Under the pieces are notes generated by a model. It saw only the letters and a list, made by a program, of their open reading frames with translations. It was not told the DNA's origin and did not search any database. The position numbers and the translations under genes were made by a program. Shown here in pieces: positions 13,227 to 29,744 of a stretch of 64,000 bases of DNA (its first letter is position 1; the number at the start of each line of letters is the position of its first letter). The stretch is from a virus (Duplodnaviria; Heunggongvirae; Uroviricota; Caudoviricetes). Location: positions 114,612 to 178,611 of IMG/VR virus record IMGVR_UViG_3300010234_000001. One strand, written 5' to 3'.

Positions 13227-13713
13227 AGTGCTTAAATTTTACAAGATATACGATGAAGTTGAAATCCCAAAATTTGCTACGGAAGGATCGGCTTGTTTTG
13301 ACGTGCGGGCATTTGTTCCGATAGCGGATACCGCATTATTTTCAAAAGTTCCGGAACATATGATACCAAAGCATGTGCTTATTCAACCGGGGGAAAGAAA
13401 GCTGTTGTCAACCGGATTGATTATGGATATTCCGGTGGGATATCACGTCAAGTTATACGCCCGTTCCGGATATTCGTTCCGCGAGGGGTTGATTATGACA
13501 AACTCCGTTGGTATTATCGATTCCGACTATACGGACGAACTGAAAATCTCCGTGACTAACATAAGCGACAAAAACGTGCATGTGAATAATGGTGATCGTG
13601 TGGCGCAGGGAATGATGGTCAAGAACGAGAGCTATATTATCGCTCGCACGACCGAACCGCCCCAACAAAAAACCGACCGGGTTGGCGGTTTTGGTTCAAC
13701 CGGGACAAAATAA
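13219..13713 (+). CDS. dut: dUTPase (dUTP diphosphatase / dCTP-deaminase-fold)
   Basis: dUTPase motifs ARSGYS and GIIDSDYTDE. Confidence 0.65.
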   Translation: MTEVLKFYKIYDEVEIPKFATEGSACFDVRAFVPIADTALFSKVPEHMIPKHVLIQPGERKLLSTGLIMDIPVGYHVKLYARSGYSFREGLIMTNSVGIIDSDYTDELKISVTNISDKNVHVNNGDRVAQGMMVKNESYIIARTTEPPQQKTDRVGGFGSTGTK

Positions 13714-13771: not shown

Positions 13772-13851
13772 GCTCTTGTGGGCAAATAGGTAAAGTCGGC
13801 AGTTTCAAAAACTGCGTCATTTTGTCGGTTCGATTCCGATCAAGAGCACCA
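13772..13851 (+). tRNA. tRNA-Leu (anticodon CAA)
   Basis: Hand-folded cloverleaf: acceptor gctcttg/caagagc, anticodon stem gcagt/actgc, loop ttCAAaa, T-loop ttcgatt, CCA encoded. Confidence 0.6.
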
Positions 13852-14097
13852 ACACAAGGAGAATCCCCATGAAATGCCTATGGGATTATGGCGGTTAGCT
13901 TAGGGTGGTTAATATCCACCCGAAAAAAGGAGTATATTATGCAAGATGTGAGAGTAAGTGGAGTAAGTGAATCCAGTTGGATAGTATTAATTGTTGTATG
14001 CTTCATTTTGGGAGGAATAGCGGACACGCTATACGAAATGTAATGTTTGCAATGGCCGGATTCATGTCTTATAGAAGAAACATCGGAATAATAAAAT

Positions 14098-14175
14098 ACC
14101 CTCATAGCTTCAACTGGACAGAGCGCTAGACTACGAATCTGGAGGTTAGGGGTTCGAATCCTCTTGGGGGTACCA
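14098..14175 (+). tRNA. tRNA-Arg (anticodon ACG)
   Basis: Acceptor accctca/tgggggt, D-arm GCTT..GAGC, anticodon loop ctACGaa, T-loop ttcgaat, CCA encoded. Confidence 0.7.
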
Positions 14176-14239
14176 TCAAAAACCTTGCCATACAAAAAAA
14201 ATGCTGTATGGCAAAATAGGGAAAAGTGAATATTTAATA

Positions 14240-15052
14240 ATGTCTACAAACATTAAAATAGTTCCATCAGTAGCGGTAATAACGCCAACTATTGCTAAAT
14301 CAACGGTAGTTGAAGCCATTGAGAGTGTGGCTCTTCAAACATATCCGAGTGAAATGATCACGCATGTGTTAGTCAAGGATGGTCCGCAATACAATTTAAC
14401 TCAAACCATTATAAATGAGTCATCAAAGTGGGATAAAGAACGACTAAATCGACTAGACCGGTATATAAACAATGCGATCATTGATCTTCCCTTTAACACT
14501 GGCGGTAACAGTTTTTACGGACATCGCATCTATGCTGCTATTCCGCATTTACTTAACCATGACTATATTGCTTTTTTGGATGAGGATAATTGGTATGAGC
14601 CTAATCACATCGAGACGATGGTTGACAAGATCATGGAGACTGATTCGGATTTTGTATATTCGTTCCGTCGTATCTGCGACAAATCGGGAAATTACCTACT
14701 GGACGACAACTGCGAAAGTCTAGGCAAATGGCCCGTATGGCCGGTCCTTGGCGTTCCGCCAAGCGATTACAATCCGGCATTCGGTCATCTAATAGACACA
14801 TCGTCTTTTCTTTTCGAAAGAAATTTCATTCAGAGAAACTGTCACCATTGGCATAGCCAGTGGGGGGGTGATCGCAATTTCTTGCACACGGTGTCCGATT
14901 ATTTCGGTATACAGTATGAGCCAACAGGACTTCATACACTAAATTATAGATTGGATGGAAATCCGAATTCCGTGACAAAGGATTTCTTTGAAGCGGGCAA
15001 CAAAAAAACATTACATTATTATGGGGGTAAATTGCCATGGAAAAAGCAGTAA
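14240..15052 (+). CDS. glycosyltransferase family 2 (GT-A)
   Basis: N-terminal VAVITPT GT2 signature and DED acidic motif (FLDEDNWY). Confidence 0.6.
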   Translation: MSTNIKIVPSVAVITPTIAKSTVVEAIESVALQTYPSEMITHVLVKDGPQYNLTQTIINESSKWDKERLNRLDRYINNAIIDLPFNTGGNSFYGHRIYAAIPHLLNHDYIAFLDEDNWYEPNHIETMVDKIMETDSDFVYSFRRICDKSGNYLLDDNCESLGKWPVWPVLGVPPSDYNPAFGHLIDTSSFLFERNFIQRNCHHWHSQWGGDRNFLHTVSDYFGIQYEPTGLHTLNYRLDGNPNSVTKDFFEAGNKKTLHYYGGKLPWKKQ

Positions 15053-15516
15053 ATTATGTATTGGGTGTGGCACAAATACCAATGTGGAATAAATTCGTTC
15101 TCTTGAAAAAGAACCGTCCCCCACAACTGGCGGGAATATGGAACTTCGTTGGTGGCAAGGTTGAACCCACGGATGAAACAATATATGACGCGATGGTCCG
15201 AGAGTTCTATGAGGAAACGGGCGTTATGACTTCGCAAGGCAAGGTATGGAATTATATCGGAAACTTCCGTCGCGACAATCGATTCAATGTGTATGTTTTT
15301 CATGCCGTGGATGCAAGTTTTTGGAATGTCGTGACGGCAACGGATGAAGAAGTTCGTATTGTTGACATTTTTGATGATAACAATATGATAGATTATGATG
15401 GGGGATTCGCCCCTAACGTGGAATGGATTACGCAATTTGTAATGTCCCCGGACCATAAAGAATTTGACACCAAGTTTGACGTGGTGTATAATGGTTGGTA
15501 TGAAGGAGTAAATTGA
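15037..15516 (+). CDS. Nudix hydrolase
   Basis: Nudix box GGKVEPTDETIYDAMVREFYEETGV. Confidence 0.65.
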   Translation: MEKAVNYVLGVAQIPMWNKFVLLKKNRPPQLAGIWNFVGGKVEPTDETIYDAMVREFYEETGVMTSQGKVWNYIGNFRRDNRFNVYVFHAVDASFWNVVTATDEEVRIVDIFDDNNMIDYDGGFAPNVEWITQFVMSPDHKEFDTKFDVVYNGWYEGVN

Positions 15517-16298
15517 TGGGTTTTATTGGACCGCAGGAACTGACAAGTATGTTATACTCATTCAAAGATACGGATGATGGTGCGTTGCGAGATAACGATT
15601 TTCTCCATTTTGTTGGCTTTTGCATGAGCAACTTGGCAGTAACAAATTCGCAGTGTTTCCAAGACGTATGGGTGCTATATGAAATGCTTAAATACAGTTC
15701 GCCCAACGAACATCCATTTTTTGTGGAGTTTGGTGCGGATAACGGTCTTCTTGATAGCAATACTCTCCTATTACAAAATCTAGGCTGGCACGGAATTCTA
15801 TCCGAGCCAAACCCGGAGAGGGTGAAAGAATGCAAATCAAATCGTGAGTCGCATCATGTTTCGGTCTACGATTATGCCGTGTGGAATATAAAGAACGGAG
15901 TTATTCCGTTTATGGTGAGCGGTGAACCAAATCTGTCCACTTTGCCGCAATACGCGAAATCCGACTATAATGCGAAAAAACGCACGGAAAATACGCATAT
16001 CATTGACGTGGAAACAATCGGATTGTATGATTTGCTTCGGGAAGATAAAGCACCAAAATATATTGATTATATAAGTGTTGATACCGAAGGCTCCGAGTAT
16101 GAGGTATTGCATCATTTCTTTGAATGGTATTCACTGGATTCTTCTAACAGGCATGAACCACCATACTTGATGACGATTGAGCATAATTATCAGTCGGAAC
16201 AGAAACAGAAAATTGAAACATTAATGACCAATTGGGAATACGAGCAGAGATTTCCCGATATTTCCCGTTGGGACAGCTTTTGGAGAAAGAAAACTTGA
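15513..16298 (+). CDS. FkbM-family methyltransferase-like protein
   Basis: VEFGADNG motif resembling FkbM DxGANxG. Confidence 0.4.
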   Translation: MMGFIGPQELTSMLYSFKDTDDGALRDNDFLHFVGFCMSNLAVTNSQCFQDVWVLYEMLKYSSPNEHPFFVEFGADNGLLDSNTLLLQNLGWHGILSEPNPERVKECKSNRESHHVSVYDYAVWNIKNGVIPFMVSGEPNLSTLPQYAKSDYNAKKRTENTHIIDVETIGLYDLLREDKAPKYIDYISVDTEGSEYEVLHHFFEWYSLDSSNRHEPPYLMTIEHNYQSEQKQKIETLMTNWEYEQRFPDISRWDSFWRKKT

Positions 16299-17233
16299 CT
16301 GATACAGTAGTGGGCGTCTTTAACAACTACGGTTGGGATGACGTAAAATATTGGGCCAATTCACTAGTAGCTTCCGGCTTTGAAGGACGAAAGGTTGCCA
16401 TCGCATATCAGGTGATGGATGAAGTCGTGCTTAAGCTACAGCGGATTGGTTTCGAAGTGCATCGTAAAGATATATTCGATGTGGGTGATAGATTCAATAT
16501 CGTGGTGCGCCGTTTCTATGATTTATGGGACGTTTGCAGTCAGATGGAGCATGAGCCGGGTGATCGCCTTATTACAACCGATGTGGGTGATGTGGTATTT
16601 CAACGCAATCCGAGCGAGTATCTGGAAATGTGCACGTCGCCCGATTTTTTGCTTGCATCCGGCGAAGGAATACGGTATAAGGATGAACCTTGGTCGCACC
16701 GCAACATGATTCGATCCTTTGGCGAGGAAGAATTTGATAAAATGGCGCACTATGAAATCTGTTGCGCGGGCGTGATTGTCGGGGCGCATGATACGGTTGT
16801 TCGACTGGCGCAAGACGTTTACATGCTATGCCAAGACAGACCCCAATTCGTTGAAGGGGGTGGCGGACCGGATCAAGCGGCTTACAATATCCTTATTCGC
16901 GGGAAATATCGTAATAAGATGATTTTCGCAAATCATGGTGATTGGTGGGCCGCACAGATGGGCACAACCCTTCACGCGGTCAAAGCGGGAATGGGTGATA
17001 TTGGATGGAGTTACGCTCAAGCGGAAGACAAAGAAGCCCGCTTGGCCGAAATAGAAAAATTGATGCTTTACCGTCAACCAATAATTCATGAGACTGGTGT
17101 AGTGTATAATGCGGACAATAGCGATCCATATTGTATTGTTCATCAATATAACAGAGTTCCGCATTTACGCATGAAAATTAGAAATGAAACCATAGCGAGT
17201 GATATGGATCATCTATATATCAAGATAGGATAA
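16232..17233 (+). CDS. hypothetical protein (start uncertain)
   Basis: 333-aa ORF overlapping the upstream gene; no confident motif. Confidence 0.35.
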   Translation: MGIRAEISRYFPLGQLLEKENLTDTVVGVFNNYGWDDVKYWANSLVASGFEGRKVAIAYQVMDEVVLKLQRIGFEVHRKDIFDVGDRFNIVVRRFYDLWDVCSQMEHEPGDRLITTDVGDVVFQRNPSEYLEMCTSPDFLLASGEGIRYKDEPWSHRNMIRSFGEEEFDKMAHYEICCAGVIVGAHDTVVRLAQDVYMLCQDRPQFVEGGGGPDQAAYNILIRGKYRNKMIFANHGDWWAAQMGTTLHAVKAGMGDIGWSYAQAEDKEARLAEIEKLMLYRQPIIHETGVVYNADNSDPYCIVHQYNRVPHLRMKIRNETIASDMDHLYIKIG

Positions 17234-17237
17234 AATT

Positions 17238-17882
17238 ATGGCATACCCTGATGCACCAAAATTGGTGATCGAACAAGATGGAGAGGGAAGCACTATGGGC
17301 TTGCATGACTTCTCCACAATCGAAGAATTGAAAGAGTCTCGAATTTGGCCGCACGCATATAATGCGGCGTTCGGTATTCTTCCGTATATTCGTCGGTTGG
17401 GGGATAACACACAAGGCGTAGAGATTGGAACGGAGCGTGGCGAGAGCGCGTATCTGATCCTTGACGAGTGCCCGAATGTTACCACCCTATGGACGGTTGA
17501 TCCTTATGTCGAGTATGAAAACTGGAATGGTCCGGTTGAACAGGAAAAGCTTGACAAATATAAGGGAATTGCGGAAACCAATTTGGAAGTATTTAACGGA
17601 AGAGCTTCCCCGTTAATCATGACTTCGGATGAAGCTGTTGACTGGTTGGCCCATATTGAAAAGGTTGATTTCGTGTTCATTGACGGCAGCGTTGATGAAG
17701 AACAGTATTATCAGGACATGAAGAACTGGTATACCAAAATTCGACCGGGCGGACTGTTTGCCGCGCATAACTACCAGCTAGAGTCGGTGCGTAATGCCCT
17801 TAAGAGATTCCGTGAAGAAGATAAAATTCGAATTCCAATTCAGCGCACGGAGAACATGACATTTTTCTGGACCAAGCGATGA
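17238..17882 (+). CDS. class I SAM-dependent methyltransferase (Methyltransf_24 / O-MTase-like)
   Basis: FVFIDGS ... IRPGGLFAAHNY motif pattern. Confidence 0.55.
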   Translation: MAYPDAPKLVIEQDGEGSTMGLHDFSTIEELKESRIWPHAYNAAFGILPYIRRLGDNTQGVEIGTERGESAYLILDECPNVTTLWTVDPYVEYENWNGPVEQEKLDKYKGIAETNLEVFNGRASPLIMTSDEAVDWLAHIEKVDFVFIDGSVDEEQYYQDMKNWYTKIRPGGLFAAHNYQLESVRNALKRFREEDKIRIPIQRTENMTFFWTKR

Positions 17883-18005
17883 AATATCGAAATGTAGCGT
17901 TCATACTATACGGAACACTATTATTATTCATGGCTTCCGCGTCGGTTGATTTTATATTAATGCTGACTGGATTACTAGCCATTAGTTTAGGATTGTTAGT
18001 TTATA

Positions 18006-18917
18006 ATGAATAAACCTAGATTAAAACTCGGATTTCGTAACACGTTTGAAAACGCCCAACTCTTCTTTATGTGGGCGCTTAAAAAGCGGTTCGATGTTAT
18101 TTGTGATCACGAAAATCCGGATTATCTGATTTACGGTGATTCCAATTTCGGACAATTTGATCCGAATATTCTTCCGAATGCCAAGAAGATTTTCTATACC
18201 GGCGAGCCGGTTGGAAGAGAGTTTGCGGAAGTTGTTGATGACTCATATGCGATCACGTTTGATCATGTCAATTCTCCAAGTCATTATCGACTTCCGCTTT
18301 ATGTTGTTGATATGTGGGCGGCTGTTCATGACGACAAGTTCACAGATGATTTTTTATATTTGTGTCATAGAGACATACCGGACCCACTTATCAACTTCTT
18401 TGGAAAACAGACAAATCATCGTTTGTTTTCCTATGTGCAGACCAACCCGAATCAACATATTCGAACGGGATTTGTAAAAAAGTTAATCGAGCGAGAAATG
18501 GTTGACTGCGGTGGTCCGCACTTGAATAATGTTGGCTTTGTTGTTCCCCGCGAAGGCGGGCATACTGCCAAGATTGAATTCCTGAAGAGACGCAAGTTTA
18601 ATGTGGCGTTTGAGAATGGATCAAGACTTGGTTATGTAACTGAAAAGTTAATCAACGCGTATTATGCCAACACTATCCCCGTGTATTGGGGAAGCATGAG
18701 TGTTGAGAGGGAGTTCAATCCGGAGTCCTTCATCAATGCTAATAATTGTGGGTCCGCTGAAGAAGTTATCGACAAAGTTATGTCGCTTAACGCGGACCCA
18801 CAAAAATACAAGGCGATGTTGACAGCACCGCCATTCCGTGATAATATACCCCCATCGTGCACGAACATTGATTTGTTCTTGGACTGGTTTGAAACTTTTG
18901 TTTATGAAGGAGAATGA
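18006..18917 (+). CDS. glycosyltransferase family 10 (alpha-1,3-fucosyltransferase-like)
   Basis: FNVAFENGSRLGYVTEKL matches the GT10 signature FxLxFENS ... YVTEK. Confidence 0.6.
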   Translation: MNKPRLKLGFRNTFENAQLFFMWALKKRFDVICDHENPDYLIYGDSNFGQFDPNILPNAKKIFYTGEPVGREFAEVVDDSYAITFDHVNSPSHYRLPLYVVDMWAAVHDDKFTDDFLYLCHRDIPDPLINFFGKQTNHRLFSYVQTNPNQHIRTGFVKKLIEREMVDCGGPHLNNVGFVVPREGGHTAKIEFLKRRKFNVAFENGSRLGYVTEKLINAYYANTIPVYWGSMSVEREFNPESFINANNCGSAEEVIDKVMSLNADPQKYKAMLTAPPFRDNIPPSCTNIDLFLDWFETFVYEGE

Positions 18918-19041
18918 AAATGCAAGTCGCTGAAGGCACTTCAATGGAACCGGCAAGCTTTATGTATGTTGCCAAAATGTTGATTCTGATTATTGGCGGA
19001 ATGACTACCGTTGGTATTTTGTTTGCTATGGGAGTTGGACT

Positions 19042-20019
19042 TTGAGTAAAGGAAAACTCCTTTTCGTAGTACATCGGGCTTACCCATTTCCGGGTGGGTC
19101 CGAATACTACGTTCAAGACATGGCTAAAGAAATGCTTGGCCGTGGCTATGACGTAACTATTCTTGCGCATGAGCATCAAGGATATCACGGAATTCCCGTA
19201 ACGAATGACTATGAAATCCTCAATCATGAATGGGATTTGATTATCGTGCATGGCGCGGATGTGATTAGCCAAAATATCGCGCTAGTTAATGCGCATCAGA
19301 TAAAAAGTCCTATTCTGTATATGATTATCAAGCCGTCAGACAGCTTGACCGCAATTAATGGAATGAAGGATTGTGCATACATAGGATATTCCACATACAA
19401 CGACGTGTATCATATACAGAGACATAATCACCAAGACAAAGCCAGACGGGTTCGTCATGGCATAGTTGTTGATGACTGGAACGATCACGAATTTGTTTAT
19501 ACGCCAAAGAAGATGGTTGATCCGGAAATGATCAGCGTTGTTTCGGTTGGCGGGTTCTCCCCGCATAAGGGGATGAACGAACTTGCCGATACATTTAACA
19601 AACATCGTATTCCCGGAATGAGACTATATCTATCCGGCTATATGGATCAACGCTTAGCCCCGCAGGAAAGTGATTACGTTAGAGTTTTTAAATATTTGAC
19701 CCGTTCCGAAGCCAGAGACCTTATCAACCAAGCCGACGTTTATGTGATGAATTCATACGAGGAAGGATTTGGACTTGTTTTGCTTGAAGCTATGCTGGCA
19801 AAGGTACCATGGATTGCCCGTTCCGGAGTCGGAGCGGTAAATGATTTGGGTAGATACGGCACTGTAGTAAACAACGCGGAAGGAATCATGTACGCACTGG
19901 AACAGTTTAAAAATACTCGTGTTTTTTCGGATGTTGATGAAGCAAGGGAATATGTTCTTCAGAATCATATGATTCGGCATACATGCGATGATATCGAAGA
20001 TATTCTTTGGAATGGATGA
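19042..20019 (+). CDS. glycosyltransferase family 4 (GT-B)
   Basis: EGFGLVLLEAMLAKVP motif of GT4/GT1. TTG start. Confidence 0.6.
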   Translation: MSKGKLLFVVHRAYPFPGGSEYYVQDMAKEMLGRGYDVTILAHEHQGYHGIPVTNDYEILNHEWDLIIVHGADVISQNIALVNAHQIKSPILYMIIKPSDSLTAINGMKDCAYIGYSTYNDVYHIQRHNHQDKARRVRHGIVVDDWNDHEFVYTPKKMVDPEMISVVSVGGFSPHKGMNELADTFNKHRIPGMRLYLSGYMDQRLAPQESDYVRVFKYLTRSEARDLINQADVYVMNSYEEGFGLVLLEAMLAKVPWIARSGVGAVNDLGRYGTVVNNAEGIMYALEQFKNTRVFSDVDEAREYVLQNHMIRHTCDDIEDILWNG

Positions 20020-20816
20020 CGGGAGTAAAATACAGCATGGAAAATGGAGTAACATTCGGAATCTGCGTAGGGGATAATCCTACGTATCTTACCAAAGTTG
20101 TTGAAAGCATCGAAAACATTCGGGATTTAACGGCAAACAACTATGAAATTATATTCATGGGCGAAGAGGGTGTTGAGTGGTATAGCCACAATTTCGATGC
20201 GGTAAAAGCCGTATGTAAATGGTCCAGTGTTGACTTGGGACTTTGCGCTAAGAAAAACTGGATAGCCAAAGCGGCCAAGTTTGACAACGTATGCATAATT
20301 CATGATTATTATCAGTTTCAACCAAACTGGTATGAGGCAATGCGGAATTATCCAAATCCGGCATGGGAGCTTATGCTATGCCCAGTCAAGACGCTAGAGG
20401 GGCACCGGAGCGCCGATTGGCTGGTGTCACCCATGATCATGGATGATATGTTGGAGAAGCGTCCGGATATGGCCGCTAATCTCATGGCTATCGCCCCGCA
20501 TGAAAACGGTCCTAAATACGTTAGTGGACTCCCGTATGATGTGACTAATATGTCACACATTCAATACGTGTCTGGCGGCTATGTGCTTGCGAAGAAAAAA
20601 GTGTTCATGGAAGTTCCTATGAACAATAAATTGGATTGGGGTGACGCGGAAGACGTTGAATGGAGCAACAGACTAAATCATAACGGTGTAGTGTTTAGCA
20701 TGAATACCGAAACCGAAATGAAAATATTAAAACCAAACAAATGGCATTGCTATCAAATGTCGGATGAATTTTTAGAGGTACTGAAACAAGAATATGGAAT
20801 CTGGAAACAACTATAA
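20007..20816 (+). CDS. hypothetical protein, possible GT-A-fold transferase
   Basis: 269 aa, sits inside the glycosylation cluster. Confidence 0.3.
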   Translation: MEWMTGVKYSMENGVTFGICVGDNPTYLTKVVESIENIRDLTANNYEIIFMGEEGVEWYSHNFDAVKAVCKWSSVDLGLCAKKNWIAKAAKFDNVCIIHDYYQFQPNWYEAMRNYPNPAWELMLCPVKTLEGHRSADWLVSPMIMDDMLEKRPDMAANLMAIAPHENGPKYVSGLPYDVTNMSHIQYVSGGYVLAKKKVFMEVPMNNKLDWGDAEDVEWSNRLNHNGVVFSMNTETEMKILKPNKWHCYQMSDEFLEVLKQEYGIWKQL

Positions 20817-22209
20817 AAAACTAATCATTTTTGATCTTGACGGTGTATTAATTGACAGTCGGGAATATCATTTCGAAGCTTTAAACCGGGCGCTTCAACA
20901 AGTTGATCCGCAATACGTGATCAGCAAGGATGAACATCTTTCAACATACGACGGTTTATCAACCACTAAAAAATTGGAACTTCTTACTAAAAATAAGGGG
21001 CTTCCAAAAGAATCATATCAGCGTATATGGGAACTAAAACAAGAATACACCATAATTCTTTACGAAGAGAAAATAAAAACCAGTGCAAAGCTAATTGAAA
21101 TATTTCGAGAATTGCGTAATAGCAAGCGCGATTATTACATAGGCGTTGCTTCCAACAGTATCAAAAAGACAATGGACATAGCCCTTAAAGCCCTTGGTGT
21201 GAGAGCTATGATTGATTGTGTGGTCTCCAACGAAGATGTTGAAAAAACTAAACCATATCCGGCCATGTATTGGAAAATAATGAATGCTACACATGCAATT
21301 CCAAGCACAACGATCATAATTGAAGACAGTCATATCGGTCGTCAAGCGGCAATCGATAGTGGAGCTACGCTGCTCCCCGTGGAGAATCCGGACGATTTAA
21401 CACTTGACAAAGTGCTAGCGATGTGTGATAATCTGGAAAATAAAATGAATTCCGGAAAAAACATCCCTTGGCGGGACTCGAAGCTTAACGTTCTTATCCC
21501 TATGGCGGGTGCCGGTTCAAGGTTTCAGCAAGCCGGATATAGCTTCCCTAAACCGTTAATTGACGTGCGGGGTAAGCCTATGATCCAAGTGGTTGTTGAA
21601 AATTTGAATATCGAAGCTAACTTTATTTACATTGTTCAAAAAGAACACTATGACGAATATCACTTAAAGTACCTCCTAAACCTAATTACTCCGGGGTGTA
21701 CTATTGTGCAATTGGATGAAATTACGGAAGGTGCGGCTGAAACGGTGTTGACAGCCAAAGATCATATCAATAATGAAAATCCATTACTGATTGTAAATTC
21801 CGACCAATTCATCGAATGGAATTCAAACGAGGTCATGTACGCATTTAGCGCGGACCAAATTGATGGTGGTATTCTCACATTCAAAAGCACGCATCCGAAA
21901 TGGAGTTACGTCAAACTGGATGATCGGGGTTTTGTGAGCGAGCTTGCGGAAAAGAAAGTTATCAGCGATATTGCGACGGTGGGTATTTACTACTGGCGTT
22001 TCGGTGAAGACTTTGTTTGGAATGCGGAAGAAATGATGAACCACGACGATAAACGTATTAATGGTGAATGGTATGTCGCACCAGTCTTCCAAGAAGCTAT
22101 TGAAGATAGTGATGCGAAAATTCGAGTTAAACATATTGATAAGATGTGGGGACTTGGAACGCCGGAAGATTTACAATACTTCTTGAATAATTATAAAGGG
22201 AAAATTTAA
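20794..22209 (+). CDS. bifunctional HAD-family phosphatase / sugar-phosphate nucleotidyltransferase fusion
   Basis: N-terminal HAD motif I IIFDLDGVLIDS. C-terminal NTP-transferase motif LIPMAGAGSRF ... PKPLI. Confidence 0.55.
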   Translation: MESGNNYKKLIIFDLDGVLIDSREYHFEALNRALQQVDPQYVISKDEHLSTYDGLSTTKKLELLTKNKGLPKESYQRIWELKQEYTIILYEEKIKTSAKLIEIFRELRNSKRDYYIGVASNSIKKTMDIALKALGVRAMIDCVVSNEDVEKTKPYPAMYWKIMNATHAIPSTTIIIEDSHIGRQAAIDSGATLLPVENPDDLTLDKVLAMCDNLENKMNSGKNIPWRDSKLNVLIPMAGAGSRFQQAGYSFPKPLIDVRGKPMIQVVVENLNIEANFIYIVQKEHYDEYHLKYLLNLITPGCTIVQLDEITEGAAETVLTAKDHINNENPLLIVNSDQFIEWNSNEVMYAFSADQIDGGILTFKSTHPKWSYVKLDDRGFVSELAEKKVISDIATVGIYYWRFGEDFVWNAEEMMNHDDKRINGEWYVAPVFQEAIEDSDAKIRVKHIDKMWGLGTPEDLQYFLNNYKGKI

Positions 22210-22784
22210 TGAGAATAGTTTTATTTGATAGAAATTGGGATATGGTTGATAAATGGAATAGGCATGTTGAAACATATAACAATTCTTTTCCGCTTCCATA
22301 TTTTTCTCAAGATGATATATCAACAAGACTTTGCCTAGTATCACAGGTTGATACTGATGCTATTGTATCACCCGCAAATTCATTCGGTGCTATGGATGGG
22401 GGTATTGATCTTGCGTATCTGAATGAATATGGCAAGGGACTGGCGGACAAGCTTCAGCAGAAAATAAAAGATGAATGCGAGTTTGAACAACTCCCGGTCG
22501 GAACCGCAGTATCGGTTGAAATTGATGGGTCCGCAGCATATCAGCCGCGATATTTGATTGCGGCACCAACAATGATAACCCCCCGCGCGATATCCGATGC
22601 GGACGTTATATGGCAAGCCACTGCCGCAGCATTGTTTGAAGCATGGAGACTAGGTGTGGGCAGTGTAGCCATTCCGGGCATGGGAACAGGCACGGGCGGC
22701 ATATCCAAGACTGTTGCCGCAAACCGCATGATTAACGCAATTGCTTACTGGAAGAGGAAGACTGATGCCCAGTGGAACGGATGA
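22209..22784 (+). CDS. macro-domain protein (ADP-ribose-binding / processing)
   Basis: TDAIVSPANSFGAMDGGIDLA resembles the macro-domain core. Confidence 0.5.
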   Translation: MRIVLFDRNWDMVDKWNRHVETYNNSFPLPYFSQDDISTRLCLVSQVDTDAIVSPANSFGAMDGGIDLAYLNEYGKGLADKLQQKIKDECEFEQLPVGTAVSVEIDGSAAYQPRYLIAAPTMITPRAISDADVIWQATAAALFEAWRLGVGSVAIPGMGTGTGGISKTVAANRMINAIAYWKRKTDAQWNG

Positions 22785-23097
22785 AAAAATAAACACAATC
22801 GGCATTGTTCGCGATCTGAAAAAGCGCGATCATGCATTGTTTAATACAAGTCCGGATATTGTTGCCGACACCAAGCGTTTTGGTGAAGAATTACGAGAAT
22901 TAGGGTTTGAGGTATTTTATATGCTATACCCAACGGGCGTGCATAAGAAAAAATCCATTGCGGCGGAAACGATCCGTATATTAGTTGACGAAAATGATAT
23001 GACGGATGCGGAATTTATGCGGCAAGTAGTGGACAAAGATAAAATCTATTTGTATGTGTATTCTAAAAAACTTAGAAAGGTGAGGTTTGCAACATGA
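22741..23097 (+). CDS. hypothetical protein
   Basis: 118-aa ORF. Confidence 0.3.
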   Translation: MLTGRGRLMPSGTDEKINTIGIVRDLKKRDHALFNTSPDIVADTKRFGEELRELGFEVFYMLYPTGVHKKKSIAAETIRILVDENDMTDAEFMRQVVDKDKIYLYVYSKKLRKVRFAT

Positions 23098-23279
23098 GAA
23101 CGGATATTAATTGGGCGAATTTGGGATTTTTGACGGTGGTAGCTATAGCTGTCGGCATACTTTCCGTTGCCTTGTTTCCCACACCGATAAACATATTGTT
23201 TTCCGGTGCTGTTAGCGGAATCATTGGTTTCACAATGGCTAAATTAGGATATTATATATTTGAATCTAGGAATCATTAA
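23094..23279 (+). CDS. small membrane protein
   Basis: 61 aa with two hydrophobic segments. Confidence 0.3.
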   Translation: MRTDINWANLGFLTVVAIAVGILSVALFPTPINILFSGAVSGIIGFTMAKLGYYIFESRNH

Positions 23280-24110
23280 ATGAAAAATTTTGAAAAGAAA
23301 GAGCGAGTTGAGATTGCCCCTAATGGGGTATTCCAACTGTACGGCGATCCGCTGGAAAAAGAAACCGAAGACCAGATGGTTGCCTATGCGCAAATGGCAA
23401 AGAGCTTTATGAACAAGCCATTCCGTTCGCCGCTGGATATTGTTGGCAACATCGAATGGCATGAAGAATTTCCATACGAAGGATATTTGTTTGGTGAACT
23501 AGGCACATTAAAGCGGTCGAATCGAATCATTGACTTCGGATGCGGTCCGGGGCGCATGATCAAGCGGGTCAATAAGTTATTTGATTGGGTTGACGGAATC
23601 GATATTTCCGATTATGCTATTGAATGGTCAAAACAACAGCCGGAATTTGAGGGTAATGATTTCTATATTTCGTCCGGGTTGGATGTTGGCCGCGCACCGG
23701 AAAACAACTACAATATTGTTTTCTCAACAATTTCGATGCAGCACATTCCATCCAGACTTATTCGTCGCAACATCATGCGGGGCATGTTTAACCTTTTGGT
23801 TAAAGACGGCTGGATTACGTTGCAGATGGCATATCATCCGGACTATGAAGCGGGTAAATGGAGTCACGACACGGAGCACGCGACATACGAAGCGGATTTC
23901 CTAGGGGCGGCGGCCACAAATGGTCATGCGGATGTTGTTATCAACGAACCAGATTTACCATTGCTAAAACAGGATATCGAAGATATTGGTTTTTCGAACG
24001 TAGAGTTTACGCATGTCAACGTGGAAGAGCTATACGCAAATCTTAATGGTCAGAGCCATGCACCTTATTGGGCGCGGGATTGGCTCTTTATTCGCGGACA
24101 GAAAAAATAA
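23280..24110 (+). CDS. class I SAM-dependent methyltransferase
   Basis: Motif I IIDFGCGPGRM. Confidence 0.55.
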   Translation: MKNFEKKERVEIAPNGVFQLYGDPLEKETEDQMVAYAQMAKSFMNKPFRSPLDIVGNIEWHEEFPYEGYLFGELGTLKRSNRIIDFGCGPGRMIKRVNKLFDWVDGIDISDYAIEWSKQQPEFEGNDFYISSGLDVGRAPENNYNIVFSTISMQHIPSRLIRRNIMRGMFNLLVKDGWITLQMAYHPDYEAGKWSHDTEHATYEADFLGAAATNGHADVVINEPDLPLLKQDIEDIGFSNVEFTHVNVEELYANLNGQSHAPYWARDWLFIRGQKK

Positions 24111-24119
24111 TAGGAGAAT

Positions 24120-24356
24120 ATGATGGATATTTTTACAATAGTAATTGTTGGACTTACAGTGTATCTTTTTCTTGACATGTTTAATAATGCGCGGAATAAA
24201 GTAAAAGAACCGGAAGTCAGAAAAGAACGAGTAGAAGAGCTATGGGAAACTATATGCGAACATACAACCGTAGTAAATGACAAACTGCGCGATATGCAGG
24301 AAGAAATTATTGCCTTGCGCAAAGAACTTGAAAAGAATGCCGATGAAAAAGTTTAG
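24120..24356 (+). CDS. hypothetical protein (N-terminal TM, coiled coil)
   Basis: 78-aa ORF. Confidence 0.3.
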   Translation: MMDIFTIVIVGLTVYLFLDMFNNARNKVKEPEVRKERVEELWETICEHTTVVNDKLRDMQEEIIALRKELEKNADEKV

Positions 24357-24696
24357 TATGAAAGATTTTAATGGTGGGTGGATTATCGGAGACTTTAGTC
24401 GATCCGTCCATCGCACAAAGGATTTTGAAGTCGGTCATAAGGCATTCAAGAAAGGTGAATATCATGCCCCGCACTATCATGCTATAGCGACGGAATATAA
24501 TATAGTCACTAAAGGAAAGGTGAAGGTCAATGGAAAGAAAATCAAGAAGAGTGAAATGTTTATAATGTCACCCGGCGATGTTTTACATATCGATTTTCTG
24601 AAAGATACGGAAATCACTGTTGTTAAAATTCCGTCATTGCCATTCGACAAGTTCATGATAAAAGAAGATGATTATATTGGGGCGGAACATGAGTGA
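24337..24696 (+). CDS. cupin-domain protein (possible sugar isomerase/epimerase)
   Basis: Cupin motif YHAPHYH ... E ... GK. Confidence 0.45.
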   Translation: MPMKKFSMKDFNGGWIIGDFSRSVHRTKDFEVGHKAFKKGEYHAPHYHAIATEYNIVTKGKVKVNGKKIKKSEMFIMSPGDVLHIDFLKDTEITVVKIPSLPFDKFMIKEDDYIGAEHE

Positions 24697-24772
24697 CGAA
24701 GAACTTAGAACATGGCTGGTTATTCTTGTGGCTATAATCGTCGTCTTAATTGTTTTTATATAGGAGAATGAA

Positions 24773-24958
24773 ATGAACCCACGCGATGAAGCAGCCCTTA
24801 TTATAATATTATTCATAATATTTTGTATATTCTTTTTGTTTGCAATCTTCTCCGGACCATTAGCGGTATTTGGAGTTTGCTTGTTAGGAATTGTATTATT
24901 AATATTGGGATTCCCGGAACCGCTTATGAAAATTATACATGGAGACAAGAGAGATTAA
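24773..24958 (+). CDS. small membrane protein
   Basis: 61 aa, hydrophobic. Confidence 0.3.
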   Translation: MNPRDEAALIIILFIIFCIFFLFAIFSGPLAVFGVCLLGIVLLILGFPEPLMKIIHGDKRD

Positions 24959-25196
24959 CATGAAAAAAGTGACGTATATTGACTGTGACAATTATGGTGC
25001 AGTATTTGTGAATGACGATATTTTTTATTATGACGATGAATATAATCTTGATTTTGAATGGGTATCAAAATTTATGATGGACCAAAAACCGGATGAAGTT
25101 ATCTATAAGAATGTTGATCTTAACTGGCTTGAAAGTCTTTGGGATAATGGTAAAGATATTCATAATCTAAAACTATCGGAATGGAAATTTAAATAA
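24939..25196 (+). CDS. hypothetical protein
   Basis: 85-aa ORF. Confidence 0.3.
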   Translation: METREINMKKVTYIDCDNYGAVFVNDDIFYYDDEYNLDFEWVSKFMMDQKPDEVIYKNVDLNWLESLWDNGKDIHNLKLSEWKFK

Positions 25197-26035
25197 TGAT
25201 AAATTTTACTAATGAAAAGACTATTAAGAGCGTAGTGCCGGAATGTGAGGTATGGATTTTAACATTCAACAGACCGGACGCATTGAATAGGCTTGTCGAA
25301 AATTTCGGCAAACAAGGAATGACGGTTAACATATTCAGCAATTATCCGGAACTAAATTTGCGTCCGGATTTACGCGAGCAATACGTCAACCAGCTTATTT
25401 TCAATACGCTAAATTCGAAGGAAAGCAGTTCTTGGTGCGCCAGATCATGGAATACAATCATGATGAAAGCGTTTGAAAACCCGAATGTGACTGAAGCAAT
25501 TCTAATTCAAGATGATACGAATATTGGTCCCGACTTTGTTAGCTGGTTTAAGCTACAGAGAAGACATTATAGTTTTATTTGGGGACCGGCCGGTGACCAA
25601 TTTCATTTTTTAAGAAAAAACATACTACAACAAACAGGATGGTGGGATGAGAGATATATTGGGTGTTATTGTGGAGACGCTGATTATGTTAAGCGTGTGT
25701 ATTTTACTAGCAATACTAGCTATATTAGTGTTACCGATAGTCATAATTGGGGTTTCAATATTAATGACTGTGGACTTGCTAACCACGTCATCACCGAATA
25801 CCAATCGAAGCTCATTGGGGGAAACTATGAAAATCAACATTGGCAATTCGAATCAATCGACAAAGAAAACCCAACCATACGCGCCAGCCAGCAACACTTC
25901 CGTGAAAAATGGGGAGTCGAACTGGACAATAATGAGCCAGTAATTAATTCATACGAACGAAAATTGAATGAAATTGATTGGTACCCATGGTTTAGCAAGA
26001 AACACGAAATAGAGACGCATAATGGAATCAAATAA
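25196..26035 (+). CDS. putative GT-A-fold glycosyltransferase
   Basis: ILTFNRPDAL N-terminal pattern and ILIQDDTNIGPDF acidic motif. Confidence 0.4.
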   Translation: MINFTNEKTIKSVVPECEVWILTFNRPDALNRLVENFGKQGMTVNIFSNYPELNLRPDLREQYVNQLIFNTLNSKESSSWCARSWNTIMMKAFENPNVTEAILIQDDTNIGPDFVSWFKLQRRHYSFIWGPAGDQFHFLRKNILQQTGWWDERYIGCYCGDADYVKRVYFTSNTSYISVTDSHNWGFNINDCGLANHVITEYQSKLIGGNYENQHWQFESIDKENPTIRASQQHFREKWGVELDNNEPVINSYERKLNEIDWYPWFSKKHEIETHNGIK

Positions 26036-27338
26036 CTTTATGGATACATGGATGGATGAAGATAGAATATCCACGGCAAACTTGTTTGTTCGGCAAACAG
26101 TAACAATAGTTGGCGGGGCGGGACATATAGGTTTGCCCCTTAGCACTCTTATTGCCGATTCCGGACATATAGCAAACGTGTGGGATACCGACGACATAAA
26201 GATTCGTAAAATGTTTAAGAATGGATATCCATACAAAGAAAATGATGGCGGGGAAGTCGTAAATAAGTTCCATGAATTGTTACACCTACGACTTCTTTTC
26301 AATTCGGAAGATGCTTTTAGGAAGAGTAGTACAATTGTCGTTACTTTAGGAACACCAATTGATAGTGAATTGGATGTACCCGATACAAGTCAGCTAGAAA
26401 GTTTCATTGAACAAAATTTCTATACGCTATTGAACATAAAAATCAAACCGTTAATTATTTTGCGATCAACCCTATATCCGGGCGCAACTGAAATAATTGC
26501 AAAGATATTAGAGAGAAAATTGAAGTGGACCGAAGGTCGTCACTACAATCTTGTTTTTGCACCGGAGCGTATTGCCCAAAACAATGGCTTCAGGGAAATC
26601 AAAGAACTTCCCCAAATAGTTGGTTCGTTTAACGAAGAAGGGGCGAATCTTGCACGAACATTCTTCCACTCTATTGGAGTGGGGACTGTTCTAGATACGG
26701 GAGTGAGGGAAGCGGAATACGCTAAGCTGATGACAAACATGTATCGGTATGTCACGTTCGGACTGGCTAACGAGTTCTATAAGATGGGATTCGAGGATAG
26801 GGTTGATGTGCACAAGGCAATAGAAATAGCGAATTTTGACTATCCCCGAATGAATCTCCCAAAACCGGGAAGTAATGTTGGCGGTCCATGCCTATTTAAA
26901 GATGGTAAGTTCTTTTTATCCAACGATAACGGGGGAAGCATAATTAATTCCGCCCATTGGGTTAATCAGAGCATGCCAAACTGGATAATAAGTAAAATCG
27001 AATGGATGAATGAATTCATTCACAAACCCAATAATGTTTTAATTTTAGGTGAAGCGTTCAAAGCGGAATCGGATGATACTAGACATTCATTAACTCATAA
27101 GATGAAGCGTCTATGCGAACTTAAAGGATGGGGGGTTGATATTTACGATCCTTATACGAAGAATAATAAAGAACTATATTGGAAAACGTATAACGTAGTT
27201 ATTGTCATGACTCCGCATGAGTTGTTCAATACGGATCAATATTGGAATAGTTTTAGTGATAATATACTTATTATCGATCCGTGGAAACATCTGGAAATAT
27301 CAAAAGAGGATAATTACGGGATTTACATGTATAAATGA
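26022..27338 (+). CDS. UDP-glucose/GDP-mannose dehydrogenase family (nucleotide-sugar dehydrogenase)
   Basis: N-terminal Rossmann VTIVGGAGHIGLP. Catalytic-Cys motif GGPCLFKD, similar to UDPGDH GGSCFPKD. Confidence 0.65.
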   Translation: MESNNFMDTWMDEDRISTANLFVRQTVTIVGGAGHIGLPLSTLIADSGHIANVWDTDDIKIRKMFKNGYPYKENDGGEVVNKFHELLHLRLLFNSEDAFRKSSTIVVTLGTPIDSELDVPDTSQLESFIEQNFYTLLNIKIKPLIILRSTLYPGATEIIAKILERKLKWTEGRHYNLVFAPERIAQNNGFREIKELPQIVGSFNEEGANLARTFFHSIGVGTVLDTGVREAEYAKLMTNMYRYVTFGLANEFYKMGFEDRVDVHKAIEIANFDYPRMNLPKPGSNVGGPCLFKDGKFFLSNDNGGSIINSAHWVNQSMPNWIISKIEWMNEFIHKPNNVLILGEAFKAESDDTRHSLTHKMKRLCELKGWGVDIYDPYTKNNKELYWKTYNVVIVMTPHELFNTDQYWNSFSDNILIIDPWKHLEISKEDNYGIYMYK

Positions 27339-28372
27339 GTAAAGAAACAATATTAATAACAGGATCGGAAGGATCGCTAATGCAAGCGGTTCTTCCAAAA
27401 TTAACAAATAAATATAATGTGGTCGGGGTTGATATGAAACTCGGATCAATGAAAAATAACGATGACAAGATGAAATATCTTAGCGGTATTGGGGATGGTT
27501 ATCTATTCAAGAAGGGCGATTTAGCGAATGAAGACTTTGTGGCAGAGATTATTGCCGAGACCAGACCTAGGTATATTATACAGGCTGCTGCTAGGATTTA
27601 CGGAGTTGGCGGTTTTAATGCTAATTGTGCTGATATCCTTGGCGATGATATTACGCTTCATCGTAACGTTCTGAAGTATGCTAAGGAATTTGGAACGGAA
27701 CGGGTTGTATATATTAGTTCGTCCATGGTGTATGAGGGACTTGGGGATAATGATGGATGGCCCGTTAGGGAAGAACAGGTTGTCAACGACGGCAAACATT
27801 TTGTACCAAAAACAGATTATGGACTAAGCAAGCTTGTGGGGGAAAGACTGTCCAGAGCGTATTTCATGCAATACGGATTAAATTTCACGATCTGGCGACC
27901 ATTCAATATCATAACCCCATTTGAATATGCGAGCAAAGAAGAGGTTGGAATCAGTCACGTATTCGCCGACTTCATTCGAATGATCGTGGAGAACGAAATG
28001 AATCCCATGCCTATTCTTGGGGATGGTAACCAAATCCGATGCTTTACATGGATAGACGACGTGGCGCAAGCCATCGCGGACCACTCTTTCCTTGACACAA
28101 CGGAGAATAGCATGTATAATTTGGGTCGTCGCGAACCGGTGACGATGCGGGAGCTAGCAACGAAAATTCATAATCGGTACCAAAGAAAAATGGGTCTCAA
28201 GAAAACAACCCTTGACTTTCTCCCCGGAACGGGTTATGATAATGATGTGCTGGTGAGAGTTCCGAATGTTGACTTGGCGGAACACCTACTCGGATGGAGA
28301 GCGTCCGTCAGCGTAGACGAAGCAATTAATCGTTGTGTGGATCACTACATAATGAAAACAATTAAATGGTAA
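27335..28372 (+). CDS. NAD-dependent epimerase/dehydratase (SDR family)
   Basis: ILITGSEGSL Rossmann segment and YGLSK (YxxxK) catalytic motif. Confidence 0.7.
   Translation: MSKETILITGSEGSLMQAVLPKLTNKYNVVGVDMKLGSMKNNDDKMKYLSGIGDGYLFKKGDLANEDFVAEIIAETRPRYIIQAAARIYGVGGFNANCADILGDDITLHRNVLKYAKEFGTERVVYISSSMVYEGLGDNDGWPVREEQVVNDGKHFVPKTDYGLSKLVGERLSRAYFMQYGLNFTIWRPFNIITPFEYASKEEVGISHVFADFIRMIVENEMNPMPILGDGNQIRCFTWIDDVAQAIADHSFLDTTENSMYNLGRREPVTMRELATKIHNRYQRKMGLKKTTLDFLPGTGYDNDVLVRVPNVDLAEHLLGWRASVSVDEAINRCVDHYIMKTIKW
28092..28120 (+). promoter_or_regulatory. sigma70-like promoter inside the epimerase gene, ~250 nt upstream of pstS (TTGACA-17-TATAAT)
   Basis: Perfect TTGACA and TATAAT with a 17-nt spacer. 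Confidence 0.45.
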
Positions 28373-28373
28373 A

Positions 28374-29438
28374 ATGGAGATAATCTTGATGAAATTGACT
28401 ACATTAATCTTTGGCGGAATTTTGGCGGCTGCGGTCGCTGTTGCGCCAGTTCAAGCGAGGGAGCAAATTTCGATTGTTGGTTCCTCAACCGTATTCCCGT
28501 ATACGCAAGCCGTTGCGGAAGAGTTCGTAAATCTGTATGGGTTTTCCGCTCCGGTCGTGGAAGCGACCGGAACGGGCGGTGGAATGAAGTTATTCTGCGC
28601 TGGCGTGGGTGAAAACACCCCGGATTTGACGGGCGCATCGCGGGCAATCAAAGACAGCGAGGCGGAACTTTGCGCTAAGAATGGCGTCGAGTATGCGGAA
28701 GTTCTTGTTGGATATGATGGAATTGTTATAGCGCAGTCTCTTAGTGGAGAGCCGATTGAATTATCCGTCACATCATTATTTGCTGCTCTTGCCTCCGATA
28801 TTCCATCATTTCCCGATGGAAGCGAGATTGTGACAAATCCAACACAAAAATGGAATGATGTGTGGGATAAATATCCGGATACGAGAATTATTGTATACGG
28901 TCCTCCCCCAACATCAGGAACGCGGGATGCATTCGTGGAGTTGGCACTTGAAGTTGGATGTAATCGGTCCCTAGACTATCTTGGATATAGCATCGATGAT
29001 GTTACTAACATTGCATCGCGAGTGTTGGATGAAGATGCGCATGAACAAATTTGTAAGCGCATGCGCACGGACGGTCCTTTTATTGAAGCCGGTGAAAACG
29101 ATAATATTATCGTGCAGCGTTTGAATTCCGATCCGGAAGCTCTTGGTATCTTCGGTTACTCATTTCTGTTTGAGAATACGGATACGCTGCGCGGACTTAA
29201 CGTGAATGGTGTAGCACCATCCCGCGAAACAATCGCGGATGGCTCTTATCCACTATCAAGACCGCTATATTTTTATGTGAAACTTAATCACATGGAAGCA
29301 ATTCCCGGTCTTGCCGACTTTGTTGCCGAGTATGTATCCGAAGAAGCATTCGGTGATGATGGATACCTTACCGAACGTGGTCTTGTCCCGCTTCCAATTA
29401 TCGAGCGTGACGATATCAGAGAAGAACTTGGATTATAA
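28374..29438 (+). CDS. pstS: phosphate-binding protein PstS (periplasmic ABC substrate-binding protein, auxiliary metabolic gene)
   Basis: Signal peptide followed by the PstS signatures SIVGSSTVFPY and ATGTGGG ... DLTGASRAIKDSE. Confidence 0.7.
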   Translation: MEIILMKLTTLIFGGILAAAVAVAPVQAREQISIVGSSTVFPYTQAVAEEFVNLYGFSAPVVEATGTGGGMKLFCAGVGENTPDLTGASRAIKDSEAELCAKNGVEYAEVLVGYDGIVIAQSLSGEPIELSVTSLFAALASDIPSFPDGSEIVTNPTQKWNDVWDKYPDTRIIVYGPPPTSGTRDAFVELALEVGCNRSLDYLGYSIDDVTNIASRVLDEDAHEQICKRMRTDGPFIEAGENDNIIVQRLNSDPEALGIFGYSFLFENTDTLRGLNVNGVAPSRETIADGSYPLSRPLYFYVKLNHMEAIPGLADFVAEYVSEEAFGDDGYLTERGLVPLPIIERDDIREELGL

Positions 29439-29669: not shown

Positions 29670-29744
29670 GCGTGCGTAGTGCTAGTGGTAACACGTCTGG
29701 CTTCCAACCAGAAATTGCAGGTTCGATTCCTGTCGCCCGCACCA
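29670..29744 (+). tRNA. tRNA-Gly (anticodon TCC)
   Basis: Acceptor gcgtgcg/cgcccgc with one U-C mismatch. Anticodon stem tctgg/ccaga, loop ctTCCaa, T-loop ttcgatt, CCA encoded. Confidence 0.6.

Follow-up and report, generated by a model that had tools for sequence, protein, structure and literature searches.

A conserved island of sugar-nucleotide and glycosyltransferase genes in the replication module of a T4-like aquatic phage and the glycan-assembly pathway that it may encode

Clusters of sugar genes have been annotated in marine T4-like phages since the first cyanomyovirus genomes, and their product and target have so far been assigned by annotation. Those of cyanomyoviruses (P-SSM2, S-SCSM1, S-SCSM2R) and pelagimyophages, described by annotation only as "LPS" (lipopolysaccharide) or "cell-wall synthesis and modification" clusters, include a family 10 glycosyltransferase (GT10) and a UDP-glucose dehydrogenase, and the roles proposed for them are a change of the host surface or protection of DNA (PMC12801897; PMC7029224). 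Here, we describe a 14-kb island of carbohydrate genes in a 64-kb stretch (64,000 nt, called the window below) of a 178.6-kb phage genome (IMG/VR record IMGVR_UViG_3300010234_000001) and compare it with these clusters and with other viral systems that make and transfer sugars; negative results given for the window cover these 64 kb. The island very probably encodes one pathway that assembles a glycan on an acceptor other than DNA.

Pfam and PHROG domain scans and the list of open reading frames (ORFs) show the window to be a T4-like myovirus replication module. Upstream of the island the order is uvsW, a gp55-like sigma factor, gp47, gp46, gp45, gp44, gp62, regA, two small ORFs and dUTPase, and downstream it is PstS, SNase, an exonuclease, GapR, HAD_SAK_2, gp43, uvsX and gp41. 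Between dUTPase and PstS, positions 14201-28372 hold an uninterrupted plus-strand run of closely packed carbohydrate genes about 14 kb long. An earlier note, made from the letters of this stretch, had claimed a contiguous sugar-nucleotide and glycosylation island here, and the packing, the common strand and the order kept in relatives bear it out. The distance between regA and gp43 is 20.3 kb in the window, against 0.3-9 kb in other T4-like aquatic phages.

In its sequence-level features the island fits the cyano- and pelagimyophage clusters. The T4-like aquatic myovirus backbone is shared (here uvsW, gp47, gp46, gp45, gp44, gp62, regA, gp43, uvsX and gp41), glycosyltransferases (there GT2, GT4, GT10, GT11, GT25 and GT8) are grouped with nucleoside diphosphate (NDP)-sugar epimerases and dehydrogenases in variable regions, and cultured members carry homologues, at 58-61% identity for a fusion of HAD and nucleotidyltransferase domains and at 29% for GT10 (to an "alpha-1,4 fucosyltransferase" of S-SKS1). 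Their clusters, however, lie in a tail-fibre or hypervariable region, whereas the island occupies the regA-gp43 interval of the replication module; moreover, its order is kept across a deep clade, and the phage is distant from all cultured ones. For its gp43, identity reaches no more than 47.5% with any phage-collection record and no more than 49% with any IMG/VR contig, the best matches being cyanomyoviruses and marine viral contigs at 45-49%, and no match was obtained when the island was compared by megablast with 50,697 phage records.

The earlier note had suggested comparing the regA-gp43 interval of related phages. At the protein level, the same gene order is found in the regA/dUTPase-gp43 slot of at least nine related contigs with 42-68% identity (L081/L082, L090/L091, L094, L158, L117, L110, L122 and L175, the last being a mis-binned contig of a metagenome-assembled genome). 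Twelve sugar genes besides that for a Nudix hydrolase have the same relative order in the window, L081/L082 and L094, and ten have it in L090, where the Nudix gene has moved to the position after the last sugar gene. Identity to L081 is 43-68% for the island genes as compared with 81% for regA, 54% for gp62 and 46% for dUTPase; the island has diverged as much as the flanking core genes. Its GC content (0.37-0.45) is the same as that of the rest of the window. Because synteny extends across divergent relatives and the composition matches the surroundings, the island is old: it is a lineage-defining, vertically inherited occupant of a variable slot, and a recent horizontal insertion was rejected on these two grounds. 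Thus, the earlier statement that the island is inserted between regA-dUTPase and gene 43 stands as to location but not as to recent arrival. The synteny shared with relatives also means that the genes did not come together by chance.

The anchor gene of the cassette (20794-22209) is a fusion of HAD_2 (97.5 bits in Pfam) and NTP_transferase (53.6 bits) domains. Its HAD half has beta-phosphoglucomutase (60 bits) and its C-terminal half an NDP-sugar pyrophosphorylase (4evw, 60 bits) as the nearest PDB neighbours, and the catalytic motifs of both halves are invariant in an alignment of 24 homologues. An NDP-sugar 6-dehydrogenase (26022-27338) has three UDPG_MGDP_dh domains and scores 215.7 bits with TIGR03026 against a cut-off of 189.8; its nearest PDB entries are UDP-ManNAc dehydrogenase 4r16 (155.6 bits), Cap5O and CalS8, not Ugd. 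The adjacent last sugar gene (27335-28372; PF01370, 131.5 bits) encodes an extended short-chain dehydrogenase/reductase (SDR) of the epimerase/dehydratase type acting on an NDP-sugar, with weak and mixed NCBIfam and PDB neighbours (ArnA/UXS, GDP-fucose synthase, GalE) and all equivalog scores far under their cut-offs. It reads SSSMVYE and YGLSK, which looks epimerase-like for an extended SDR, and is without the Thr-Ser/Asp-Glu acid-base motif of decarboxylases and dehydratases. This SDR is probably an epimerase; the UDP-xylose synthase or ArnA-type decarboxylase to which its top NCBIfam and PDB neighbours point was set aside on account of the absent acid-base motif. Likewise, when the two enzymes are compared with the TviB/TviC, Ugd/UXS and ArnA pairs, the dehydrogenase family matches but the decarboxylase/dehydratase motif does not. 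The Nudix hydrolase (15037-15516; PF00293, 44.5 bits) is kept in L081/L082. A small protein called a cupin in the earlier note (24277-24696) scores 20.3 bits with Cupin_2, under the cut-off of 27.2, but belongs to a phage family, phrog_24762 (107.9 bits), and it recurs beside HAD-NTP or NTP-transferase genes in L001/L002 and seven genome loci.

At least six transferases are encoded in the island: GT2, GT10, GT4 and three proteins of the GT-A type. The GT2-family enzyme (14201-15052; PF00535, 35.9 bits) has a probable start at 14240, which is Met14 of the ORF and fits orthologues of 267-268 amino acids (aa); orthologues are 58% identical in L081 and 38% in L090. The GT10 enzyme (18006-18917) resembles alpha-1,3/4-fucosyltransferases, with FucT_N (47.2 bits) and the GT10 C-terminal domain (60.7 bits). 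Its sequence contains AFENGSRLGYVTEK and keeps FEN-x-x-x-GYVTEK, an alpha-1,3/4-fucosyltransferase motif; no genes for GDP-fucose synthesis are found in the window. An exact-match look-up of this GT10 protein gave no record. GT10 is uncommon in phages, as the earlier note had remarked, but has precedents in S-SKS1, S-SSM7, S-SSM6a and S-SCSM2R (PMC12801897). The GT4 enzyme (19042-20019; PF13692, 56 bits; PF00534, 52.4 bits) is a retaining glycosyltransferase of the GT-B type.

PHROGs gives no function for the three GT-A ORFs, which begin at 16298, 20007 and 25196. The earlier note listed two FkbM-like genes, but the island has only one, and the other FkbM gene lies outside it at 42673-43341. 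The first GT-A ORF (16298-17233), which follows the FkbM gene of the island, is predicted to be a GT-A-like transferase of an unnamed family, on the basis of the family alignment, in which two aspartates three residues apart are invariant (D95/D98, DxD-like), and of weak Pfam matches to Nucleotid_trans (8 of 29 members) and GT_PLOD (5 of 29); neither the protein nor its family profile matched PDB sequences. The other two are GT-A glycosyltransferases according to their AlphaFold2 models. The ORF at 20007-20816, GT2-like and without a Pfam or PHROG match, has a model (pLDDT 89.7) for which Foldseek against the PDB gives the chondroitin polymerase K4CP as best match (7.7e-11), followed by AvpGT, WrtF and RmlT, and H99, D100, Y101, E215 and D216 are invariant or nearly so in its family. 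The ORF at 25196-26035 (pLDDT 90.9) belongs to a phage family lacking a Pfam model, with 162 homologues, all unnamed, in which Q105-D106-D107 is invariant; its model matches GT-A enzymes only (GnT-I, POMGnT1, glycogenin and K4CP in the PDB, GT2-like proteins among viral models).

Three methyltransferase genes complete the set: one of the FkbM family (15513-16298; PF05050, 47.8 bits; TIGR01444, 46.3 bits), one of the TylF/Methyltransf_24 type, predicted to act on oxygen (17238-17882; PF13578, 51.4 bits; PF05711, 32.1 bits), and one for a class I S-adenosylmethionine (SAM) methyltransferase of the Methyltransf_23/25/11 type (23280-24110; 38.4 bits), which is 66% identical in L081 and 58% in L090. 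Altogether, 11 of the 13 domain calls of the earlier note are confirmed by Pfam above cut-offs, the exceptions being the second FkbM and the cupin, and its proposal that the genes make an activated, modified sugar and transfer it is supported in the sense of a cluster for sugar activation, transfer and methylation. No island enzyme has a 19-residue window with a mean Kyte-Doolittle hydropathy above 1.6; segments resembling membrane spans occur only in three small non-conserved ORFs and PstS.

Not every gene in the interval belongs to this set. The macro-domain gene (22209-22784; PF01661, 44.6 bits), previously counted as a pathway member, has no homologue in the relatives' islands by tblastn, and the slot directly after the fusion gene is occupied by NADAR in L090/L091, by a 128-aa ORF in L082 and by nothing in L081; the macro domain is swappable cargo. 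PstS, a phosphate-binding protein at the end of the island (28374-29438, plus strand; PBP_like_2, 146.9 bits), is variable cargo as well: it is not at that site in L081/L082 and precedes GT2 in L110. Two small ORFs of 118 and 61 aa at 22741-23279, the latter with one hydrophobic segment, are not conserved and have no match in Pfam, PHROGs or, by tblastn, the relatives, and two at 24773-25196 (a hydrophobic one of 61 aa and one of 85 aa) are not conserved either. Relatives' islands carry inserts at gene boundaries, among them Gad2, Tad2-like, Trypsin-PDZ, NADAR, a homing endonuclease and an N6/N4 DNA methyltransferase (7281-8273 and 14945-15196 in L081, 5727-6800 and 8206-8625 in L090, 7747-8985 in L092). 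Genes of the anti-defence type thus use the cassette as a landing site, and the cargo genes (macro, PstS and the relatives' inserts) should not be taken as steps of sugar synthesis.

Could the whole interval, then, be a variable dump of independent auxiliary genes that have no single product and serve to tune the nucleotide-sugar pools of the host or to make a soluble glycoside? The variable size of the regA-gp43 interval among phages and the presence of unrelated cargo (Macro and PstS here; Gad2, Tad2-like, NADAR, Trypsin-PDZ and homing endonuclease in relatives) would agree with this. It is nevertheless unlikely: the sugar genes keep their relative order across the window, L081/L082, L094 and, for ten genes, L090, the variation is limited to non-sugar genes, and a shared subset recurs around the fusion gene in other lineages.

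The fusion gene is widespread. A homologue search gave at least 8000 candidates, the best 120 of which are all at least 62% identical, many being on contigs of 130-190 kb; in IMG/VR, a scan with the single fusion protein matched nothing and an alignment query found at least 576 relatives. The cultured Synechococcus phages B3/B23, S-PRM1, S-CAM9, S-8S55 and DSL-LC03 carry the same fusion at 58-61% identity within clusters in which transferases and an epimerase flank it, but its partners there are GT11, GT25 and a protein like a glycerophosphodiester phosphodiesterase (GDPD) rather than GT10, the dehydrogenase and the SDR, and these cassettes lie near hli/petE genes. Among 80 IMG/VR loci inspected within 10 kb of the fusion, the 16298-type gene is the most frequent island gene (50), followed by the 20007-type (37), GT4 (36) and GT2 (23). 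GT10, the dehydrogenase and the SDR co-occur in one subset of loci, thus marking an extended form of the cassette only, and compact cassettes occur in other T4-like lineages, where they are located after uvsX/gp41, and in the cultured phages B3 and S-CAM9. On contigs where DNA polymerases (gp43) are 47-50% identical the fusion is 58-68% identical; it is more conserved than the DNA polymerase. The GDPD-like protein of about 150 aa (PDB 7e0v, E = 1.9e-4), which shows the HRG..EN..EID..GHD signature of glycerophosphodiester phosphodiesterases, lies within ±10 kb of the fusion, often directly beside it, in 68 of the 80 viral loci and 26 of 37 genome loci (for example, L083 12704-13183, L086 13371-13823 and L087 11697-12152), and also in phages B3 and S-CAM9. 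It is absent from the window and L081/L082. Accordingly, the donor made by the fusion could be an NDP-sugar or a nucleotide-activated phospho-alcohol.

Cells have the fusion too, with orthologues at 47-55% identity in a scan of one genome per species. In Legionella/Tatlockia it stands among housekeeping genes directly after a LicD-family gene, forming a two-gene unit (L188 8142-10411; L187 9168-11341). LicD enzymes decorate surface glycans with phospho-substituents, and the pairing may hint that the fusion enzyme activates a phospho-alcohol and not a sugar. In Pelagibacter its neighbour is thyX, and two FkbM genes and genes for a polysaccharide deacetylase and a formyltransferase are found close by. 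In a Prochlorococcus contig (L182) it lies between pseudouridine-synthase-like and SRAP/YedK-like ORFs, of housekeeping type by eye; two Prochlorococcus-labelled contigs had no megablast match to phages, and L182 looks cellular by eye.

What could be the acceptor of the glycan? The earlier note had named DNA, the virion and the host surface as options. One candidate is DNA, the transferases glycosylating a hydroxylated base, as in T4, RB69/DLP3 and TET-linked clusters, so that it escapes restriction and CRISPR. The island stands among replication and nucleotide genes, with dUTPase directly upstream and a dCMP deaminase and a dATP/dGTP diphosphohydrolase-like gene nearby, and relatives' islands hold anti-defence-type genes. 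The cytosine arabinosylation clusters of RB69 and DLP3, which are likewise T4-like, also pair a HAD phosphatase and an NDP-sugar pyrophosphorylase with GT4-like transferases (PMC13326640). However, those clusters have a ThyA-homologue 5-hydroxy-dCMP synthase, a dCTPase and nucleotide kinases (PMC13326640), none of which was recognised here, and they add at most three sugars, with no methyltransferases in Table 1 of PMC13326640. Known phage pathways of DNA glycosylation need either a ThyA homologue or a methyltransferase with a TET-like dioxygenase, normally encoded in one cluster with the transferases (PMC13326640; bioRxiv 10.1101/2023.12.21.572611). A tblastn search (E<=1) of the window, 85 related phage loci and 37 genome loci found no ThyA-family homologue; the query, an E. 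coli ThyA sequence, was validated by its 96% identity to Salmonella thyA. No scanned ORF has a TET/JBP, C5-methyltransferase or T4-type DNA glucosyltransferase domain. Glycosylation of DNA thus has no linked base-hydroxylating enzyme here, and the analogy to T4 glucosylation drawn in the earlier note has no support. The dUTPase and the protein with a dATP/dGTP diphosphohydrolase N-domain are present, and a gp56-type dCTPase was not recognised in scans of the window. In addition, the known glycans of DNA consist of one to three sugars, for which six transferases and three or four methyltransferases are too many. We regard DNA hypermodification as very improbable, and give it some room since the window is 64 kb of a 178.6-kb genome.

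From the enzyme families, folds, gene order, conservation and lack of membrane spans, we infer substrates, an order of steps and an acceptor as follows. The cassette would work in the cytoplasm of the infected cell. Initially, the HAD-nucleotidyltransferase fusion would turn a phosphorylated sugar (or polyol) into a nucleotide-activated donor, and the small cupin may feed the fusion. The dehydrogenase and the adjacent SDR would convert an NDP-hexose or NDP-N-acetylhexosamine to an NDP-uronic acid, which would probably then be epimerised. The six soluble transferases (GT2, three GT-A, GT10 and GT4) would add sugars in series to give an oligosaccharide, to be O-methylated by the FkbM, TylF-like and class I SAM methyltransferases. 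The acceptor would be a lipid-linked precursor of the host envelope, either the core of LPS or lipooligosaccharide or an O-unit on its carrier, and host machinery would export the glycan, resulting in an altered surface of the infected cell that could, for example, block superinfection or reduce the loss of progeny on debris. Taken as a whole, with the envelope acceptor and the surface change included, this proposal is a tentative one, to which we give somewhat less than an even chance, and the surface change, its last step, is the weakest part.

An envelope acceptor is suggested because of the cellular contexts of the fusion (the LicD neighbour; FkbM, deacetylase and formyltransferase in Pelagibacter) and because HtrL_YibB and GT25, which are otherwise families of LPS-core loci, occur in related cassettes of phages. 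Serotype conversion by temperate phages (GtrABC, Oac) has the outcome proposed here, a change of host surface glycan encoded by a phage, but relies on integral membrane proteins and a bactoprenol-linked sugar, whereas the island enzymes have no membrane span and Pfam scans of the island ORFs found no Gtr or acyltransferase domain. Several points weigh against this acceptor. None of the results singles out an acceptor, and the island has no initiating phosphoglycosyltransferase, flippase, polymerase or ligase, so that an envelope change would rest wholly on host machinery. To our knowledge, remodelling of the surface by sugar transfer is established only in temperate phages, through membrane Gtr or Oac, and the phage here is lytic and T4-like. 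The substrate of the fusion is predicted from sequence, and its usual GDPD-like partner of about 150 aa is missing from the window. From the anti-defence-type inserts of the relatives (Gad2, Tad2-like, NADAR), a role in counter-defence might be suspected instead. Finally, transferases of the LPS type have also come to serve other acceptors, DNA among them (bioRxiv 10.1101/2023.12.21.572611), and therefore family resemblance is weak evidence for the target.

The same enzymes could instead serve the particle. Virion glycosylation is practised by chloroviruses, mimiviruses and some mycobacteriophages, the capsid and tail glycosylation of the last being reportedly described by Freeman et al. in 2023. 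Here, donors made by the cassette itself would go into a methylated oligosaccharide, and this would be attached to structural proteins of the phage (capsid decoration proteins, fibres or whiskers). Like those autonomous viral clusters, the island combines its own donor synthesis with several soluble transferases and methyltransferases and has no membrane or export machinery; among viral models, the 25196 GT-A protein is closest in fold to GT2-like proteins of giant viruses and uncultured phages, and 5 of 29 members of the 16298 family weakly match the GT domain of collagen-glycosylating PLOD. Long vertical inheritance and conservation above that of the DNA polymerase would also fit a role in the phage's own particle. 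Nevertheless, the carriers of those clusters are eukaryotic giant viruses or actinophages and not a T4-like phage, and the mycobacteriophage genes adjoin structural genes, whereas the island sits in the replication module, flanked by replication/nucleotide genes and tRNAs. No late-promoter motif is kept before the island, no candidate acceptor protein is linked to it, and no report of a glycosylated cyanomyovirus virion was found in the literature; we know of no glycosylated protein in this phage group. A virion target is possible, though somewhat less likely than the host envelope. Judged from sequence features, the island matches neither DNA glycosylation of the T4 type, nor serotype conversion of the Gtr type, nor virion glycosylation of the mycobacteriophage type.

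Expression timing offers no help, and an argument from it was dropped: promoter motifs gave no usable signal, a scan for sigma-70-like promoters being barely above shuffled sequence. The motif TATAAATA occurs in a single copy before the island, at 13716, and is not kept in relatives; its six copies in 64 kb are about what base composition would give by a rough estimate.

The flanks of the island are as follows, all on the plus strand. Upstream are regA (12237-12632; 146 bits), a trimeric dUTPase (13219-13713; 67.7 bits) and, at the island boundary, tRNA-Leu(caa) and tRNA-Arg(acg) (13772-14175; ARAGORN), of which tRNA-Arg(acg) is in the equivalent position in L081/L082. The downstream boundary is marked by tRNA-Gly(tcc) (29670-29744; ARAGORN), which comes after the SDR gene in five genomes (the window, L081/L082, L110 and L094), and gp43 DNA polymerase (32949-35483) lies 4.6 kb past the island end. 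Integration scars at the tRNA genes were considered and set aside; only tRNA-Gly(tcc) is widely kept, at the downstream edge, which is too little for a mechanism. A GapR-like DNA-binding protein (31409-31654; 109.7 bits) just upstream of gp43 is kept in L081/L082, and an R2K-clade ATP-grasp gene (11014-11859) between the clamp-loader genes gp44 and gp62 is at the same site there. The ORF at 8396-8929 corresponds to the N-terminal domain of dATP/dGTP diphosphohydrolase (PF18909, 102.8 bits), a family known from phages with 2-aminoadenine in place of adenine; no PurZ-like gene is found in the window.

Extra genes of carbohydrate type are scattered outside the island (3807-4379, 6109-6624, 7547-8359, 42673-43341 and 58044-58868), their types being a ManC-type mannose-6-phosphate isomerase cupin (between gp47 and gp46), cytidylyltransferase-like, GT8/Anp1-like (phrog_1574), the second FkbM and Sulfotransfer_2. 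The last is the sulfotransferase-like gene that the earlier note had pointed out at 58125, and it narrowly passes, with 26 bits against a cut-off of 22. The window has 33 tRNA genes, 29 of them over 22 kb at 41191-63324, where five GIY-YIG/NUMOD3 seg-like homing-endonuclease ORFs (41949, 46077, 48429, 54647 and 56377) and an HNH ORF (47069) are scattered among them; one of these tRNA genes, called "tRNA-Stop" by ARAGORN (anticodon tta, 59308-59380), may encode an ochre suppressor. A DUF7788/DUF2828 protein (537 aa) and an SPFH/Band_7 protein (474 aa) at 59324-62438 lie in a patch of raised GC (0.48-0.53 as compared with about 0.41 elsewhere), with a separate VWA-domain ORF upstream (51912-52583).

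This comparison defines a conserved core, namely the HAD-nucleotidyltransferase fusion, three unnamed GT-A families, GT4 and methyltransferases, which is present in hundreds of viral contigs and in cultured, growable Synechococcus phages and can be separated from variable cargo such as Macro, PstS and anti-defence-type genes. There is a modest possibility that aquatic T4-like phages of a deep, widespread group synthesise their own nucleotide-activated donors and use them to coat their particles, or less probably their DNA, with an O-methylated glycan of several sugars. With its pathway built around a fusion that Pelagibacter, Prochlorococcus and Legionellales also have, this would amount to autonomous glycosylation of the giant-virus style in phages of the T4 type, and a virion glycan of this kind would alter the view of phage-particle surfaces in the sea. 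If the product is instead a glycan of the host surface, it would bear on superinfection and receptor dynamics in abundant ocean hosts.

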